From contig CAZASU010000004.1 of the NCBI GenBank assembly GCA_964487785.1, forward strand, positions 1,623 to 61,294: a stretch of DNA of 59,672 bases, given 5' to 3'. Position 1 is the first letter of the stretch; each line of letters begins with the position of its first letter. Made by a program: the position numbers and the translations under genes. Under the pieces are notes generated by a model. It was not told the origin of the DNA. It ran no database searches and worked only from the letters and a program-made list of their open reading frames with translations. Positions 2,423 to 23,205 of the stretch are shown in pieces. The DNA is from an uncultured Gemmatimonadaceae bacterium. GTDB lineage: Bacteria; Gemmatimonadota; Gemmatimonadetes; Gemmatimonadales; GWC2-71-9.

Positions 2423-2841
2423 CCACCACCCGACCGGTGCAGGAGTTTTACTCCATCGGCGAAGTCTGTGGGCTGACCGAGCTGAAGCCGCACGTCCTTC
2501 GCTACTGGGAAAGTCAGTTCCGCTTCCTGAACCCGGCCAAGAACCGCTCGGGCAACCGGGTCTACAAGGGGCGCGAGGTCGAGCTGATCATGCTGGTGAA
2601 GCACCTCCTGTATACCGAGAAATTCACCATCGACGGGGCCCGGCAGCGGATCGATCACTACCGCCGGACCGGCGAGCTGCGGGTCTCCGCCAGGCGCGCC
2701 TTCGAGGCGGAGCTGGCGCATGAGGTCCAGACGACCCTCGAGGATGTCATGGGAATTCTCGATGGGAAGGCCGTACAGCGGGACAGCGGGGCAGGGGGGC
2801 AGCGGGGCAGCAACAGCACACCACCTGAGCCGAAGGCGTAA
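2419..2841 (+). CDS. MerR-family HTH transcriptional regulator; C-terminal tail derived from a repeat element
   Basis: YSIGEV...PHVLRYWESQF..L.P...GNRVY MerR signature, upstream of surE-pcm. ATGA overlap with gpsA. Confidence 0.9.
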   Translation: MTTTRPVQEFYSIGEVCGLTELKPHVLRYWESQFRFLNPAKNRSGNRVYKGREVELIMLVKHLLYTEKFTIDGARQRIDHYRRTGELRVSARRAFEAELAHEVQTTLEDVMGILDGKAVQRDSGAGGQRGSNSTPPEPKA

Positions 2842-2883
2842 GTGTCGACTGCCCCGCTGCCCCGCCGCCCTGCTGCTCCGCTG
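2776..2883. repeat. Palindromic octamer-repeat element, copy A
   Basis: Left arm cagcggga-cagcgggg-cagggggg-cagcgggg-cagc (2776-2811); 37-nt core starting aacagcacac (2812-2848); right arm ctgccccg-ctgccccg-ccgccctg-ctgctccg-ctg (2849-2883). Confidence 0.85.
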
Positions 2884-16912: not shown

Positions 16913-18459
16913 ACGCGCTTCCGCATTCGCGCCGGAAGGATGCCCAACTGGTCGCGGTACTTGGCGACCGTGCGGCGGGCGATCTGAATCCCCTGCTCCT
17001 GGAAGAGGTGGACGATCTGCTGATCGGTGAGCGGCTTGGCGTTGTTTTCCTCGCCTACCATCTTCTCCAGCTTGGCCCGGATCGAGCGGGCGCTCGCGTC
17101 CTCGCCTGAGGCGGTGGAGAGAGCGCTGGAAAAGAAGAACTTGAGGGGAAGCACACCACGCGGCGTCTGGACAAACTTCTCGTTGGTCACCCGGCTTACG
17201 GTGGATTCGTGCATGTTGATGACCTCGGCCACTTCCCGCAGGGTGAGCGGCTTGAGGTACTCGACGCCCTTCTCGAAGAAGTCACGCTGCCGGTCCACGA
17301 TGAAATTCATCACTTTCAACATGGTCTGGCGTCGCTGCTCGATCGCCTGAATCATCCAGTTGGCGCTGTTCATCTTGGAGGCGATGAACTCCCGGTTTTC
17401 CGGCGTCATCTTTTTCTTGTCGCGGGCGATTTCCTGGTAGGAGCGGCTGAGGCGAAGCCGCGGCATGCCGGTGTCGTTGAGGAACACCTGGTAGCGGTTT
17501 CCGATCTTTTCCACGATCAGATCGGGAATGATGTACCCGTCGCTCTGCTTGGAGTGCTTCAGGCCGGGCTTGGGATCGAGCCGGGAGAGCTGATCGGCTG
17601 CCGCTTGCACCGCCACCGGTTCGACTCCGAAGCGCTTCGCCAGGTCGTTCCAGCGGTGCGCGATAAGGTCGGGAAATGCCTCCGAGACGAGACGATAGGT
17701 GAGTGAGGTGGTATCGGCCAGCTCCACCAGCTGGATCAGCAGGCACTCCCGGAGATCCCGCGCCCCAATGCCGGATGGGTCGAGCCGCTGGATGACAGTC
17801 AGCATCTCCTCGGCCTCGACCATCGTGTAGAAAGGCGGGGCGGACGGAGAAGAGGCGGAAGGGGCGGACGCACGCAACGGCTCCGCCCGTGGACCCGCAG
17901 GACGGACTTTTGCCCTTTCCGCCTCTTCATCTACCGCCTCCTCATCGTCCGCCTCTTCCGCCCGAACGTGCCCCGCCATGAGCAGGTTCACGGAGTTGAG
18001 GATTTCCTCGAGCGACGCGGCAAGGTAGCCTTCCTCATTGACGTTGCCCAGAAACTCTTCCGCCAGCAGCAGCTGGCGCGGCGTCAGGATGAGCATCTGG
18101 AGCTGCTCCCGCAGATGGTCGATCAGGTCGCGGGACTCGACCGTGACCGGCTCGGTGTACTCCAGCTGTTCGTACTGCTCCCGGGTGCCGCCTACCTCGA
18201 ACCCGTTGAGCAGGATCTCCTCCCAGTCGACCTCCTCCGCCTTCTCTTTCTGCTCCTTCTCTTTTTCAGCGGTGGCCTGCTCCGGCGTCTCCTCCTCCGG
18301 CTCCAGCAGCTCGAGGAAGGGGTTGGCCAGCAGCTCCTGCTTGAGATGCTGCTGCAGGTCCATCATGGGCATGTACAGCATGTCCATGGCCTGGTACAGC
18401 CGAGGATTGACCCGCAGCTCCTGCCGGAGGCTGGTATGTTGGGAAAGCCCGGTTCTCAT
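16909..18459 (-). CDS. rpoN: RNA polymerase sigma-54 factor
   Basis: Q/L-rich region [27 protein letters not shown] and RpoN box ARRTVAKYR. Confidence 0.97.
17834..17963. repeat. In-frame imperfect 9-mer palindrome inside rpoN
   Basis: GCGGAAGRG-like units at 17834-17870 face CYYTTCCGC-like units at 17907-17963 across about 36 nt. Encodes [19 protein letters not shown]...[11 protein letters not shown]. Confidence 0.5.
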
Positions 18460-19616
18460 GCCACGGCCTCGAGACGGGCGCGGAGCCGCGCCGTGAGCGT
18501 CGGCCCCAGGTACAGCTGGGCAACCCGGTCATCATAGACCAGGTCGCGTACAGTGCCGGCGGCCTGCACTTTTCCTTCGAACATGATGTAGGCCCGATCT
18601 ACGATGTCGAGAGTCTGCTCCACATTGTGATCCGTGATCAGCACGCCAATGCCGCGATGTCTGAGGCCGGCGACGATGGTTTGGATGTCGTGCACGGCGA
18701 TCGGATCGACGCCGGCGAACGGTTCGTCCAGTAACATGAACTTCGGGTCGGAAACCAGCGCCCGGGTGATCTCGAGCCGCCGCCGCTCACCGCCGCTCAG
18801 CGTATATGCCCGGCTCTTGCGAAGATGTTTGATCGACAGCTCATCCAGCATGCGGTCCAGCCGGCTGTAGCGCTCGTCGCGGTCGAGGCCGCGGGTCTCC
18901 AGAATGGCTAGAATGTTCTCCTCGACCGTCATCTTGCGGAAGACCGAGGGTTCCTGCGCCAGGTAGCCGATGCCGTTGCGCGCCCGCTGGTACATCGGCG
19001 CGTCGGTGAGGTCGACCCCGTCCAGGCGAACGCGGCCCTGGTCCGGCCGGATGAGGCCTGTAATAAGGTAGAAGGTCGTGGTCTTTCCCGCGCCGTTCGG
19101 GCCGAGCAGCCCGACGATCTCTCCCTGCTCCACCCGAACGCTGACATCGTCCACTACCCGGCGTCCCTTGAAACTCTTGCTCAGATTGAGCCCCTCGAGG
19201 AGGCTGGACTTGGTTCGCTGGGGAATGAAGGATTTGGCCCGCTGCACCGCGCGCCGGGCTGACCCGAGCAAGGCGTCGTAGACCGTCTGCCGCTCTTCCG
19301 GCGCAGGACCCCACCAGGCTACCCGGGGCCTGACGGTCTGCCAGTAACCCGGAGCGGTGTCGAGAATCCAGCCTTCGGTGGCGAGCCGCGGAAGGACGGA
19401 ATCATTGAGGTGGTGCCGCACCTCATCGCCGGATACTTCCTGGTCGGCGTCGCCGGTTGGCTGATAGCAGGCCAGATAGGCCTCGCGATAGCTGTGCACC
19501 AGGTCGGCGAACGCGATGCTGTCGGTCGGGCCGGCAGCGCGGACGATGGCGGCCAATCCTATGGGAACCGACGGGTCCCGATCGCCCAGCGCGGCAACCC
19601 ATTCCGGGGCGGTCAT
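18456..19616 (-). CDS. lptB: LPS export ABC ATPase LptB with about 138-aa N-terminal extension
   Basis: [45 protein letters not shown] and TDHNV motifs; upstream of rpoN. Confidence 0.95.
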
Positions 19617-21046
19617 CTTCTGACCGGCCCTCCGGGGGGAGAAGCGGGCTGCGGTTTGGCGGAATCGGGTGCGGTCGGCGCATCCGCGGCCTCCAGCTGG
19701 ATCCCATCGACCTGCCCGCGGACATCCACCCGGTCCACTCCGCCCTTCGGGGCCGGACTCATCGTCATGACGATGACGTCACCCCGGGCGTAGTTGATCG
19801 AGGGGCGATCCGGATGCTTCAGGTTGGGGTCCACGTGGTACGACTGGGCTCCTTTCCGCGCCACGATGCGGCTCAAGGCAGCGCGGCGGATGCCGGCCGA
19901 GTCCCGCTGGACGAAGTTGGCCAGGACGGTGTCGCCGCGCATCCAGTCGCGCTGCTTGCTGATGGAATCGATCGTCCCACCCAGCCATGCCGACCCGAAG
20001 CCTCGGACCTCCTTGAGCTGCTGGGCGGGGGTATCGAGCGCGAGTGAATCAGCGCGCATGGCGTAGGCTGGGGAGGTGGCGTAGGGACGGATCGAGTCCC
20101 CCCAGGCCAGCGTCTGTTCGAGTTTCCTGTTATTGAGGTCGAGTCCGATGGTGTCCGCCACCAGATCCCACTCCTTGCTGACCGCATGGCCGCCGCCTTT
20201 GGCCACCACGTAGGTCAGTTCCCTCTGGTCGAGCTTCAGGTCCAACCGTCGGCCGGTCAGGTTGAAGCTGTCCCGCCCCAGACCTCGCATCACCGGATTG
20301 CCACCGAGGAGGGTACCGTCGCTTCCCTTGCCGGTGTCCAGTCTGAGCGAGTCACCCCGGGCGGCGAAATCGCTGCGATCGATCGTCACCTTTCCGCCGG
20401 CCCAGAGCCGATCGCCGCCCTTCAGTCGCGTCCGGTCCGCCACGATGAGGTAGGGCTCGGCCGGTTTGGCGCCGGTGGGGGTTGTCGCATACTGAATCCG
20501 GGGGCGTCCGGTCGCGAACATCTCCAGGGTGTCGCGCACCCCCTTGACCACCCGGTAGTAGTCGAGGGCCGGGCCGGCCAGGGTGGACCCGGTCTTGAGA
20601 TTCCTGGTGATCACCCTGCCCCGTGCCTCCCACTTCTCGCCGTTTCGGTAGTAGGTCCCATGGTCGGCATCCATGGTGAGGGTGGAGTCGCGGTACTTCA
20701 CGTTGCCGATGAACTGCACCACGTTACCACCGTACGCGGCCACGCTGTCGCTCTGCATCGTGAGCTGCTGCCCGCGGCAGCTGAGCCGGACGTTGCCCCC
20801 GGCGAAGTAGTTGGTACCGGACGGGGTTTCGTTGACGCTACCCTGGCGGTCGACGTTGTCGATCTGAAAGACACAGCGATCGGACTGGCCGTACCCGAGC
20901 TGCGACCACCCCAGCAGAATCAGAACGGCCAGTCCGAGCGGGGCAGCGGGGCAGCGGGGCAGCCTGGCAGCAACAGCATACTGGAGTGCCTGGCCGTATG
21001 GAAACACACTGCCCCGCTGCCCCGCTGCCCCGCTGCCCCGCTTCAC
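19613..21046 (-). CDS. LptA/OstA-like beta-jellyroll periplasmic protein
   Basis: Lies between lptC and lptB; repeated beta-strand patterns (GNV.....M.AD, G.V, ADSL, GDTV); signal-like hydrophobic stretch after a repeat-derived N-terminus. Confidence 0.75.
20936..21042. repeat. Palindromic octamer-repeat element, copy B
   Basis: gagcgggg-cagcgggg-cagcgggg-cagcctgg-cagc (20936-20971); 37-nt core starting aacagcatac (20972-21008); (ctgccccg)x4 (21009-21040). Confidence 0.88.
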
Positions 21047-21693
21047 CGTTGCCCCGGCAGCAGGAGGCCTTCGCCCGATACGCCTCGCGGGCGGTCCGTC
21101 ACCACATTCTTGAAATCGGGATCGGAGCGGAAGCTGTTCCCCTCCAGGTGCTCCTCACCCCTGTCGAACGAGAATTGCTTGTCGGTCATGATCTGGTTCG
21201 TGGCGTTGTCGTAGCGTAGCGATTCGCTCGAGAGCCGGCGTCCGTCGGGTGATACCACCAGCACGTTCCCCGTGGCCTCCATCGAACCGTCCTGCCACCG
21301 GTATGTGCCCCGTTGCGCCGTCAAGGTGGATCCCTCCGCGCCCTTGATGTCGAAAAACACCACCTTGACCTTATGCAGCTCGGTGATCTGGGTCGGCTCG
21401 TAGTAGAATGCCGTATCGGCTTCGACCCGGCTACGCCGGACTCCGTCATTGGTCACGTAGTGGGAGAAGCCCTCGAGCACCTGGTCGGCGCTATCGGTAG
21501 CCTGGACCGTGGTCGTCGGCCGGACGCCGGTGTCCTCGCAGGCCAGCGCCGCCGCTGCGGAAAGCACGATCACTAGGCGGCGCAGTCGGGCAGCGGGGCA
21601 GCGGGGCAGCAGGGCAGCTTGTTCCCTTGCATAAAGACTCTCCGGTGTGCTGTTCCGGCCCCGCGGCCCCGCGGCCCCGCCGCCATGCCTCAT
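21043..21693 (-). CDS. lptC: LPS export protein LptC
   Basis: Position after kdsD and before the lptA-like gene and lptB. Hydrophobic anchor ending ALAC, then ADTA, GNV.V....G..L.SE.L.Y and I.TD..F motifs. Confidence 0.85.
   Translation of the reverse strand: MRHGGGAAGPRGRNSTPESLYAREQAALLPRCPAARLRRLVIVLSAAAALACEDTGVRPTTTVQATDSADQVLEGFSHYVTNDGVRRSRVEADTAFYYEPTQITELHKVKVVFFDIKGAEGSTLTAQRGTYRWQDGSMEATGNVLVVSPDGRRLSSESLRYDNATNQIMTDKQFSFDRGEEHLEGNSFRSDPDFKNVVTDRPRGVSGEGLLLPGQR
21583..21687. repeat. Palindromic octamer-repeat element, copy C (core inverted relative to A and B)
   Basis: cagtcggg-cagcgggg-cagcgggg-cagcaggg-cagc (21583-21618); 37-nt core ending gtgtgctgtt (reverse complement aacagcacac); (cggccccg)x3-ccgccatg (21656-21687). 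Confidence 0.88.
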
Positions 21694-22655: not shown

Positions 22656-23205
22656 CGGCAGTCTGCTCCGTAAAATAGCGGGCCAGCGTTTCGGCCCAGT
22701 CACCGCGGGCGCGGAGGAGAGCCTCGACCACTTCCCGCACCGCGCCATGACCGCCGGCGGCCAGAGTGACGTGTGCCGCTACCGCCTTGATCTCCGGCAC
22801 CGCATTGGCCACGGCGATCGGCAGCCCGACCTTCCGCAGCACCGGCAGGTCGGCGAGATCGTCGCCGACGAAGGCCGCCTCCTCCCACCCGATGCCGCGA
22901 CGCTGAAGCACGTCGGCAAAGGCCGCGACCTTCCGGGGACCGGGGACCTGCAGCAGCTCCTCGACTCGAAGCTCCGCCGCCCGGAGCGCCGTTGCCTCGG
23001 AGCTCCTCCCGCTGAGCCAGACAACCGGAAGTCCGGCGGTCCGGAGGAGTATCAGGCCGAGTCCGTCCTGAATGTCGAAGCGCTTGAGCTCCACGCGCTG
23101 ACCCGCTACCGGCCCGATAAACACCCCGTTGTCGGTCAACACCCCATCCACGTCGAGGCCGACCAGCCGGACCCGGCGAGCGGCAGCGGCACTGAGCGTT
23201 TTCAT
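22645..23205 (-). CDS. kdsC: KDO-8-phosphate phosphatase
   Basis: HAD motif DVDGVLTD, FDIQDG, GDDLADL and GGHGAVRE. Confidence 0.92.
   Translation of the reverse strand: MKTLSAAAARRVRLVGLDVDGVLTDNGVFIGPVAGQRVELKRFDIQDGLGLILLRTAGLPVVWLSGRSSEATALRAAELRVEELLQVPGPRKVAAFADVLQRRGIGWEEAAFVGDDLADLPVLRKVGLPIAVANAVPEIKAVAAHVTLAAGGHGAVREVVEALLRARGDWAETLARYFTEQTAGAA

Follow-up and report, generated by a model that had tools for sequence, protein, structure and literature searches.

Two hairpin repeats with 8-base units are located just 3′ of the start codons of two lipopolysaccharide-transport genes in a soil Gemmatimonadales bacterium. In the explanation that fits best, both are resident elements that carry no gene and belong to a class of palindromes spread across the lineage; they would be old at their sites and translated into the n-region of the signal peptides of LptC and an LptA-like protein, a reading which we regard as probable.

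Octamer hairpins at the kdsD/lptC and lptC/lptA junctions

The features concerned are located in the window, i.e., the whole stretch of 59,672 nucleotides that was analysed, as follows:

2776–2883, plus strand: third copy, same unit family as copies 1 and 2, between a MerR-like gene and surE (Tandem Repeats Finder, fold)
19613–21046, minus strand: LptA-like gene, 477 aa; mature part predicted to be all-β with an LptA/LptD-type fold
20937–20971, minus strand: copy 1, 3′ arm in mRNA sense, C-rich, directly followed by the signal-peptide hydrophobic core (Tandem Repeats Finder, inverted repeat)
20972–21008, minus strand: copy 1 loop, 37 nt (loop comparison)
21009–21042, minus strand: copy 1, 5′ arm in mRNA sense, four G-rich octamers that begin 4 nt downstream of the LptA-like GTG start (Tandem Repeats Finder, inverted repeat, fold)
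21043–21046, minus strand: GTGA overlap of lptC stop and LptA-like start
21043–21693, minus strand: lptC, 216 aa from the ATG at 21693, with a lipoprotein-type signal peptide (family models)
21573–21632, minus strand: out-of-frame reading frame of 19 codons, starting in the copy 2 loop, with GGAG 7 nt upstream
21577–21618, minus strand: copy 2, 3′ arm in mRNA sense, C-rich, complement of the GGGGCAGC variant, giving one mismatch per unit
21619–21655, minus strand: copy 2 loop, 37 nt, inverted relative to the copy 1 loop
21656–21687, minus strand: copy 2, 5′ arm in mRNA sense, G-rich, GGGGCCGC variant (Tandem Repeats Finder, inverted repeat)
21690–21693, minus strand: ATGA overlap of kdsD stop and lptC start

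The unit of these lpt-junction elements is CAGCGGGG. Tandem Repeats Finder (TRF) placed 8-nt arrays at 20937–20971 and 21009–21056 for copy 1 and at 21577–21618 and 21656–21684 for copy 2; according to the inverted-repeat search, the arms of copy 1 comprise 34 nt and are 94% complementary, 26 nt of them at 100%. The two octamer-armed copies proposed in a preliminary description of this DNA are hence both real, and the two stop/start overlaps on the minus strand were confirmed, as were the reading frames, which run through both elements without interruption. The homology that had been noted between the loops was reproduced as well: 24 of the 37 bases are common to both, in inverted orientation only, and none of 5,000 shuffles reached this value. 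The element was found unchanged in contigs from independent metagenome runs; because these contigs break at the arrays, they are uninformative on transcripts and on variation in unit number.

LptC was recognized by PF06835 (E value of 2.5e-13; 50.5 bits, cut-off 21) and TIGR04409 (E value of 1.2e-21; 77.1 bits, cut-off 38). For the LptA-like protein, nothing exceeded the threshold in Pfam (1e-3), NCBIfam, or PDB sequences, OstA_2 giving an E value of 0.078. Its gene is located between lptC and lptB, and its predicted model (pLDDT of 81.6) was matched by Foldseek to LptD (E value of 8e-7) and to LptA (2r1a_C; TM of 0.79 over 133 columns). Almost every one of 75 relatives has an overlapping start at the lptC/LptA-like junction.

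The predicted RNA fold of copy 1 is very stable (−96.1 kcal/mol, z of −7.0). That of copy 2 reaches only −69.9 kcal/mol (z of −1.7) and is not significantly stable, since its arms are built from two unit variants that mismatch once in every unit. An intrinsic terminator was rejected at both elements: the scan found no U-tract terminator at either, and the sole terminator-like site between 19500 and 23000 is at 22679–22698. A search of Rfam returned no family for the hairpins, the best matches being sub-threshold miRNA-precursor models (20 to 35 bits against cut-offs of 54 to 124).

A genome-wide class of hairpins with the G-rich arm first

As the preliminary description had supposed, the family is dispersed in the genome. 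The octamer unit family of the lpt elements has 55 paired copies, and a three-unit pattern (at most one mismatch) gave 112 matches in the genome versus 0 for a backwards control; within the genus, 12 of 25 genomes (counting that of the window) have the pattern, and none of 16 genomes of other genera do. These copies are part of a class of 117 hairpins whose arms are tandem 7- to 9-nt units of about 30 unit families, with TRF periods of 7, 8, and 9 in 59, 55, and 3 cases, respectively. Specifically, the genome holds 931 arrays with periods of 6 to 12, and 118 of them are followed by a complementary array within 160 nt downstream, compared with 9 pairs in the same orientation. The G-rich arm comes first in all 118 array pairs of this genome (counted before overlapping pairs were merged); among 154 loci from other genomes, the count was 68 G-first and one C-first out of 70. 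Unit spectra differ from genome to genome.

Most copies are found in short intergenic gaps, at tandem (58), convergent (17), and divergent (10) junctions. Of 108 sides facing a gene 3′ end, 94 had a stop codon that could be located, and on approximately 65 of these it is no more than 12 nt from the edge of the element. On sides facing a gene start, the gene has its own start codon outside the element in 83 of 91 cases, which speaks against the earlier proposal that coupled junctions are targeted. At the third copy in the window, the MerR-like gene runs through the G arm and ends in the loop, and the GTG of surE is situated at the final bases of the C arm.

The loops are far more variable than the 37-nt core, described earlier as fixed, had suggested. 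They span 4 to 108 nt (median of 53) in all 55 elements of the octamer family, and most are unrelated: among the 54 loops compared, only 27 of 1,431 pairs exceeded the 99.9% shuffle level, 35 loops were singletons, and eleven had in common only a motif of approximately 12 to 15 nt next to one arm. Arm likeness in this genome is 0.802 within an element versus 0.794 ± 0.007 between elements, and 0.507 versus 0.515 at the variable unit position; the arms are thus no more alike within than between elements, and there is no sign of maintained pairing. On the same grounds, hairpin-templated correction of the arms was rejected for this genome. A G-quadruplex motif, which by sequence fits both arms of copy 1, was rejected as a unifying feature, being present in only 33 of the 117 G arms (21 of the 55 octamer arms).

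Translation, turnover, and competing readings at the lpt junctions

The class may be summarized as hairpins with two arms of tandem 7- to 9-nt units, the G-rich arm always first, and a variable loop. At kdsD/lptC and lptC/lptA, such an element is placed between the stop-overlapping start codon and the hydrophobic core of the signal peptide, and would therefore be translated as approximately 33 to 35 extra residues falling in the positively charged n-region; the insert may be tolerated because the n-region is cut off with the signal peptide. Hairpin-bearing junctions of relatives were defined by an 18-bp stem, a threshold on the minimum free energy having been dropped because GC-rich coding sequence also passes it. 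By this criterion, the junction length is divisible by 3 in 9 of 11 relatives at lptC/lptA and in 8 of 12 at kdsD/lptC (17 of 23 pooled; binomial P values are too optimistic here, the relatives not being mutually independent), whereas the frame is broken in the other 2 and 4, some of which are possibly assembly errors; counting by eye gave 15 of 18. Moreover, the LptA-like gene contains no ATG, GTG, or TTG between copy 1 and the signal-peptide core. Given that the frame is kept in most hairpin-bearing relatives and that the LptA-like gene has no other start, translation into the n-region of both proteins, as first suggested in the preliminary description, is likely. In E2, NadE, DnaX, and an AMP-binding enzyme, four additional in-frame copies were found, with Pfam domains flanking or surrounding the element in all four proteins tested, and the precedent of Rickettsia palindromic elements invoked earlier is an apt one.

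It is unlikely that both elements escape translation, with lptC starting at the GTG at 21573 by way of the 19-codon frame and the LptA-like gene starting at a non-canonical codon after its element. Such a scheme would make use of the ATG in the copy 2 loop with its GGAG, of the TAG stop of the short frame, which has one base in common with the in-frame GTG (21571–21573), a possible alternative lptC start judging from the sequence, and of the 27-bp stem 4 nt past the start codon, which should impede initiation; starts inside the loop are indeed found in relatives, clearly so for lptC in the closest one, G017, and also in L077. However, LptC made from GTG 21573 would have a signal peptide lacking the arginine-rich n-region that relatives possess, and neither the retained frame nor the missing start codon of the LptA-like gene would be expected. 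In the reading preferred here, the stem might make lptA translation depend on ribosomes arriving from lptC, or RNase III might cleave it. It appears quite unlikely to us that selection maintains the hairpins as RNA devices with which the lpt operon sets its KdsD:LptC:LptA ratios, be it by enforcing coupling, by providing an RNase III site, or by stabilizing the mRNA. In many relatives, both junctions do retain a hairpin although its sequence has turned over completely, compensatory double changes occur at 6 of 24 pairs, and copy 1 is very stable, but the same repeat class occupies ordinary gaps throughout the genome, and the hairpin is missing, by the 18-bp criterion, from 64 of 75 relatives at lptC/lptA and from 48 of 60 at kdsD/lptC. 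The lack of arm covariation within elements, the degenerate copy 2, and the negative terminator and Rfam searches point in the same direction.

The history of the sites was read from 34 orthologous-site comparisons by eye, covering 10 elements in up to 5 relatives each. A full tandem-unit hairpin was present in 21 comparisons (12 with the same unit family, 9 with another), a mini or remnant form at 4, and none or something else at 9. Across genomes, the kdsD/lptC junction carries hairpins of at least six different units, and at lptC/lptA the unit is CAGCGGGG, GCGGGTAC, GGGGAAGC, or GTCAGCGG, with eight hairpins, the window's own included, of an equal length of 168 nt. As judged from these alignments, the elements are old at the lpt sites, relatives carrying hairpins of other units or deletion remnants at the same place. 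Turnover would proceed by unit replacement, loop flipping, and partial in-frame deletion. A loop homologous to that of copy 1 but inverted is found in L056 (29 of 40 positions by eye), and a further loop inversion in G002 (C19:6423), as would be expected from recombination between inverted arms.

The preliminary description had instead envisaged a mobile element of the MITE or REP type, recently inserted at, or targeting, coupled junctions, which we now consider very unlikely. The dispersed family with its patchy distribution among species would fit this view, as would gene-bearing copies at non-orthologous places (e.g., the two loci of the window's own genome) and the absence of the full lptC/lptA element from G017, a relative with 95% identity. 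Yet the "empty" sites of G017 and others retain one or two units, as expected for deletions, and elsewhere in the genus the same sites hold hairpins of other units. Neither target duplications nor fixed termini were seen at the 10 sites compared with up to 5 relatives or in the flanks of the 55 copies, and the unrelated loops and the predominance of start-facing sides that are not read-through junctions also argue against recent targeted insertion. Alternatively, slippage alone could have turned small stem-loops into arrays in place, with nothing passed from one locus to another. Orthologous sites do include mini versions of one or two units per arm, unit numbers vary, and one metagenome contig differs by 24 letters, i.e., three units, possibly an assembly collapse. 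We nonetheless hold purely local growth to be highly improbable, since dozens of loci in one genome carry one unit where orthologous loci elsewhere carry another (at two sites, GTGAGCG in G015 replaces GTGAACG of G017, G002, or the window's own genome, G000), each genome has its own unit spectrum, and complete gene-bearing elements turn up at unrelated places. Overall, resident members of an old palindromic class account best for these observations.

Gene-bearing members and known relatives

In longer members of the class, the loop contains an Avd-like PF05635 gene; the short copies may derive from such gene-bearing ones. In this genome, 4 of 5 PF05635 genes are flanked by correctly ordered arrays, 3 of them with both arms; in the order, 29 of 34 PF05635 loci are bounded by arrays on either side, the unit family being identical on the two sides in 23. 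Gene-bearing CAGCGGGG elements were found in G016, G002, and G000, where one is cut off at a contig end, and the two gene-bearing loci of G000 share the unit and encode proteins of 87% identity within dissimilar flanks. The PF05635 protein is not, to our knowledge, a known transposase, and the genome (89.8% complete) contains no RVT_1 reverse transcriptase; judged from sequence, the tie between PF05635 and the hairpin class is an association only. Other candidate partners were rejected: the Y1_Tnp matches at C221 and C28, which might have indicated RAYTs, are flanked by other palindromes, and small GIY-YIG genes are flanked by a different, REP-type repeat and not by tandem arrays. A scan with wider loops (160 to 1,500 nt) was noisy: its 43 pairs included both polarities and consisted for the most part of 6-mers or of arms belonging to adjacent elements.

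A more far-reaching, speculative and rather doubtful reading is that hairpins and PF05635 gene together form an undescribed mobile or self-renewing element akin to the intervening sequences of 23S rRNA, its protein recognizing or propagating its own 7- to 9-nt unit. Arrays at fragile hairpin sites would then be rewritten family by family, which would explain conserved sites with unit switching and a constant G-first order, arms that match their family and not each other, and genome-specific unit spectra. The 23S rRNA intervening sequences are stem-loop insertions encoding PF05635 proteins (Pfam; bioRxiv 10.1101/2024.02.27.582315; PMC10053308). Both thus have a PF05635 gene in a stem-loop, but the present gene-bearing hairpins are located between or inside protein genes and not in rRNA.

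The closest known relatives of the class are inverted arrays of GGGAATC in Xanthomonas, and the class is little studied but already reported (PMC4692102). In X. campestris and X. axonopodis, pairs of inverted ("convergent") arrays of this G-rich heptamer, mostly of about four units each, are 89 to 93% intergenic and close to a neighbouring ORF; they recur between the same gene pairs in related species with varying length and sequence, and their function is unknown (Rehm et al. 2015, PMC4692102). Tandem 7- to 8-nt G-rich units on opposite strands with the G-rich array first, an intergenic position by gene ends, and constant sites with variable sequence are common to both. The Xanthomonas genomes, however, use one unit each, compared with about 30 unit families here, and the available part of the paper describes no translated copies, gene-bearing form, or unit change at a conserved site (PMC4692102). 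A quadruplex motif fits only 33 of the 117 G arms here and is thus no general trait of the present class. In the literature searched, exclusive of supplements, we found no paper on such repeats in Gemmatimonadota, on their translation into signal peptides, or on PF05635 genes flanked by tandem arrays.

If the predicted translation holds, the export signals of an essential envelope machine are partly built from selfish-looking repeat DNA, a natural case of palindromic repeats entering proteins where extra residues cost nothing, in which close species keep the reading frame but exchange the entire sequence. The G-first rule, the change of units where sites are conserved, and the association with an Avd-like gene provide handles on the origin and function of a repeat class for which both have been open since it was first reported from Xanthomonas and cyanobacteria. 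Annotators should be wary of automatically shifting a start codon downstream when it precedes such a hairpin.

Among other repeats, Rickettsia palindromic elements are palindromic repeats of about 100 nt with a conserved full-length consensus, tolerated in frame where a protein can carry extra residues. In-frame presence in genes is common to both, whereas members of the present class, from another phylum, have only the arm unit in common and differ in their loops. A role in mRNA stability or translation near stop codons has been proposed for REP/BIME sequences, and cyanobacterial STRR are tandem heptamers between genes. Mycobacterial interspersed repetitive units (MIRUs), direct 40- to 100-nt repeats and not hairpins, occupy operon junctions and carry small frames that overlap the adjacent genes at their start and stop; in this respect, copy 2 with its 19-codon frame and G017 with a short frame are MIRU-like. 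Unlike REP and REPIN-RAYT systems, the present arms are tandem repeats, and the Y1-transposase genes go with other palindromes; REP/BIME and REPINs with RAYT transposases are short intergenic palindromic repeats of species-specific sequence (PMC2817692). The intergenic TAACTGA arrays of Beggiatoa are heptamers in direct tandem order that precede start codons, only one inverted case having been reported (PMC4679880), and thus, like MIRUs, contrast with the inverted arrays of the present class. Compared with MITEs, the class shows no target-site duplication, fixed termini, or conserved internal sequence, most loops being singletons, and the gene carried by its longer forms is the Avd-like PF05635 gene.

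Hairpins at the lpt junctions

The genome containing the window comprises 3.02 Mb in 379 contigs (G+C content, 65.6%), and the titles of the relatives retrieved by protein search were all Gemmatimonadales or Gemmatimonadota MAGs.

Minus strand: kdsA, kdsC, kdsD, lptC, a 477-aa gene, and lptB, with every stop/start pair overlapping
18456-19616: LptB-like ABC ATPase, 386 aa, with an ABC_tran match from residue 156 onward
21043-21046, minus strand: GTGA overlap with a palindrome behind it (copy 1, lptC/lptA junction)
21690-21693, minus strand: ATGA overlap with a palindrome behind it (copy 2, kdsD/lptC junction)
2776-2883: third copy, between an upstream MerR-like gene and surE

LptC matches PF06835 and TIGR04409. 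For the 477-aa protein, family and sequence searches gave nothing above threshold; the mature part is predicted to be all-beta (pLDDT, 81.6). Because the predicted model matches LptD (E, 8e-7) and LptA (2r1a_C; TM, 0.79 across 133 columns), and given the position of the gene, "LptA-like" appears a fair label. The N-terminal extension of the LptB-like ATPase (approximately 150 aa) is without a family match.

The palindromes reported in the preliminary description are real. In the mRNA sense, each runs from about four G-rich octamers (G arm) through a loop of 37 nt to about four C-rich ones (C arm). Also as described, the two loops are homologous in opposite orientations: 24 of 37 bases are identical, only after inversion of one loop, and none of 5,000 shuffles matched that. 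Copy 1 folds with −96.1 kcal/mol (z, −7.0), its 27-bp stem beginning 4 nt past the GTG, whereas the fold of copy 2 is weaker (−69.9; z, −1.7), since each of its arms consists of a different variant of the unit. In the third copy, the MerR-like frame runs through the G arm and ends in the loop, and the surE start lies at the final bases of the C arm. Metagenome contigs carrying the element came from four studies, with two runs showing zero differences across 20700-21037. One contig (window 20700-21405; run X4, record 17) covers copy 1 with gaps totaling 24 letters, equaling three units, which may reflect assembly collapse of the array; such a gap would leave the frame intact.

History and probable translation of the elements

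In the LptA-like gene, none of the codons ATG, GTG, and TTG occurs between the element and the signal-peptide core. Among relatives (41 genomes of the order and 80 named loci; G003, an unpublished genome, adds single rows to the tallies, and no claim depends on it), the start codon overlapping the upstream stop is conserved nearly everywhere. When a hairpin-bearing junction was defined by an 18-bp stem with at most two mismatches, junction length was divisible by three in 9 of 11 cases at lptC/lptA (P = 0.0014) and in 8 of 12 at kdsD/lptC (P = 0.019), against one third expected and uncorrected for relatedness. The encoded peptides differ wholly among unit families, the frame alone being conserved, as would be expected for a cleaved n-region. 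Thus, the proposed in-frame reading into both N termini is probably right. For lptC, a start at an alternative in-frame GTG, rather than ahead of the element, is possible: a 19-codon frame begins in the copy 2 loop behind GGAG, and its TAG overlaps that GTG by one base; in G017, a relative, the lptC start lies inside the loop. A short frame across the G arm of G017 ends in a TGA that overlaps this GTG start. Reading from ahead of the element, the probable course, is what the frame counts at kdsD/lptC point to.

Units at kdsD/lptC are very different among genomes, including octamers and 9-mers, and in several genomes the lipoprotein signal peptide takes its hydrophobic core from the C arm itself. 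In 9-mer families (loci L002, L005, L008, L010, and others), Leu-Ser-Val-type repeats from the C arm form this core of LptC. At lptC/lptA, many members of the closer sub-clade have a full hairpin, with units CAGCGGGG, GCGGGTAC, GGGGAAGC, or GTCAGCGG; the distance from stop to fixed residue is 168 nt in eight, window included, and in the alignment (n = 12) compensatory double changes affect 6 of 24 pairs, the positions being identical in every unit. The "empty" sites sought in relatives were found, yet they retain one or two units from a single arm; for this reason, in-frame deletion fits better than a site never occupied. G017, with an LptA-like protein of 95% identity, is an example. In L056, a 92%-identical relative, the loop shows homology with the copy 1 loop (29/40, by eye) but is inverted, and a loop is likewise flipped at another site in the relative G002. 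Recombination between inverted arms would flip the loop, and hence could account for the opposite orientations in copies 1 and 2.

In-frame repeats also occur within proteins, at these positions of the window's genome (C, contig):

C10:3310-3401
C82:6855-6995
C11:35525-35662
C39:15031-15167

In all four proteins tested, Pfam domains flank or surround the repeat: it separates the E3-binding from the catalytic domain in an E2 acyltransferase and CN-hydrolase from NAD synthase in NadE, follows domain III in DnaX, and also lies in an AMP-binding enzyme. FtsK-, YidC-, and radical-SAM-like proteins, as well as another lipoprotein signal peptide (C9:15981), contain such repeats too, as judged by eye. 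At C7:21592-21990, an octamer-family G arm and C arm, about 310 nt apart, bracket the E3-binding domain of a second E2-type protein.

A genome-wide class of tandem-unit hairpins

A scan for further copies, suggested in the preliminary description, revealed 55 paired elements with the octamer unit of copies 1 and 2 in the genome; a three-unit pattern gave 112 matches, versus 0 for the backwards control. The control pattern had 48 matches in the related genome G005, evidently a heptamer family of its own that coincidentally equals the control. The claimed fixed core did not hold up: octamer-family loops range from 4 to 108 nt, and of 54 compared, 35 are singletons, 11 share a short motif beside one arm in either orientation, 6 contain a nested repeat of another kind, and 2 form one pair. 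The same architecture is shared by about 30 families with units of 7, 8, or 9 nt, among which the octamer family is the largest. Rather than a new MITE targeting coupled junctions, the element represents, at this locus, a repeat class known from the literature; the closest description concerns Xanthomonas, in which GGGAATC heptamer arrays form inverted pairs (PMC4692102).

A complementary array lies at most 160 nt downstream of 118 of 931 arrays (same-orientation control, 9). All 118 pairs have the G arm first and none the C arm; elsewhere (776 kb, 154 loci of other genomes), 68 are G-first versus 1 C-first (n = 70). A candidate explanation of this order, open to testing, is that Rho would be loaded by a C-rich arm if that arm were transcribed first. 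Merging of overlapping pairs yielded 117 hairpins (median length, 108 nt), or 0.44% of the genome. According to our own crude gene caller, most occupy short intergenic gaps; the junction is tandem in 58 cases, convergent in 17, and divergent in 10. On about 65 of 94 sides, the upstream stop codon is 12 nt or less from the edge of the element. Of 91 sides facing a gene start, 83 have a start codon outside the element, so that reading through the element into a gene is the exception; the LptA-like gene is among the remaining 8. Arms are no more similar within one element than between different elements, so homogenization works on the family rather than the hairpin, and this comparison gave no sign of selection for base pairing. 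At ten further elements, 34 orthologous comparisons, classed by eye, comprised 21 full hairpins (12 of the same unit family, 9 of another), 4 minis or remnants, and 9 with none or something else. Unit spectra show genome-specific differences; at two sites, the relative G015 has GTGAGCG versus GTGAACG in others.

Genes and other repeats associated with the hairpins

Long members of the class carry a PF05635 gene, in either orientation, in the loop.

PF05635 genes, window's genome: C36:19570-20078, C96:6417-6977, C27:5928-6350, C334:3-328, C22:3279-3659; relatives: loci L180-L213
Second repeat kind and small GIY-YIG genes, window's genome: C5:34186, C11:25537, C1:69125, C8:1164, C236:1811, C32:305-520, C30:16928-17131, C344:787-945

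Arrays are in the right order at four of the five genes in the window's genome. Across the order (n = 34 loci), arrays occur on both sides at 29, and at 23 the two sides share one unit family; the unit differs at nearly every locus, and gene-bearing CAGCGGGG elements are found in the window's genome (cut at a contig end), G016, and G002. Protein identity at unit distances of 0 to 4 differences is 0.81, 0.61, 0.50, 0.47, and 0.49, a trend that may simply reflect shared ancestry of entire elements. According to PMC10053308, PF05635 resembles Avd, a DGR accessory protein; the protein encoded by 23S rRNA intervening sequences belongs to this family as well (Pfam description). No reverse transcriptase was found in the window's genome.

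Two Y1-transposase (RAYT-like) genes (C28:261-980 and C221:2458-2910) are flanked by other palindromes; these are unrelated to the tandem-unit arrays, and a RAYT-like link was rejected. A second repeat kind, small hairpins of the CCCTGAGCG...GAAGGG type, is nested in some tandem-unit hairpin loops and also borders small GIY-YIG genes. At orthologous sites in two relatives, G015 and G024, a GIY-YIG-bearing insert stands in place of the tandem-unit hairpin.
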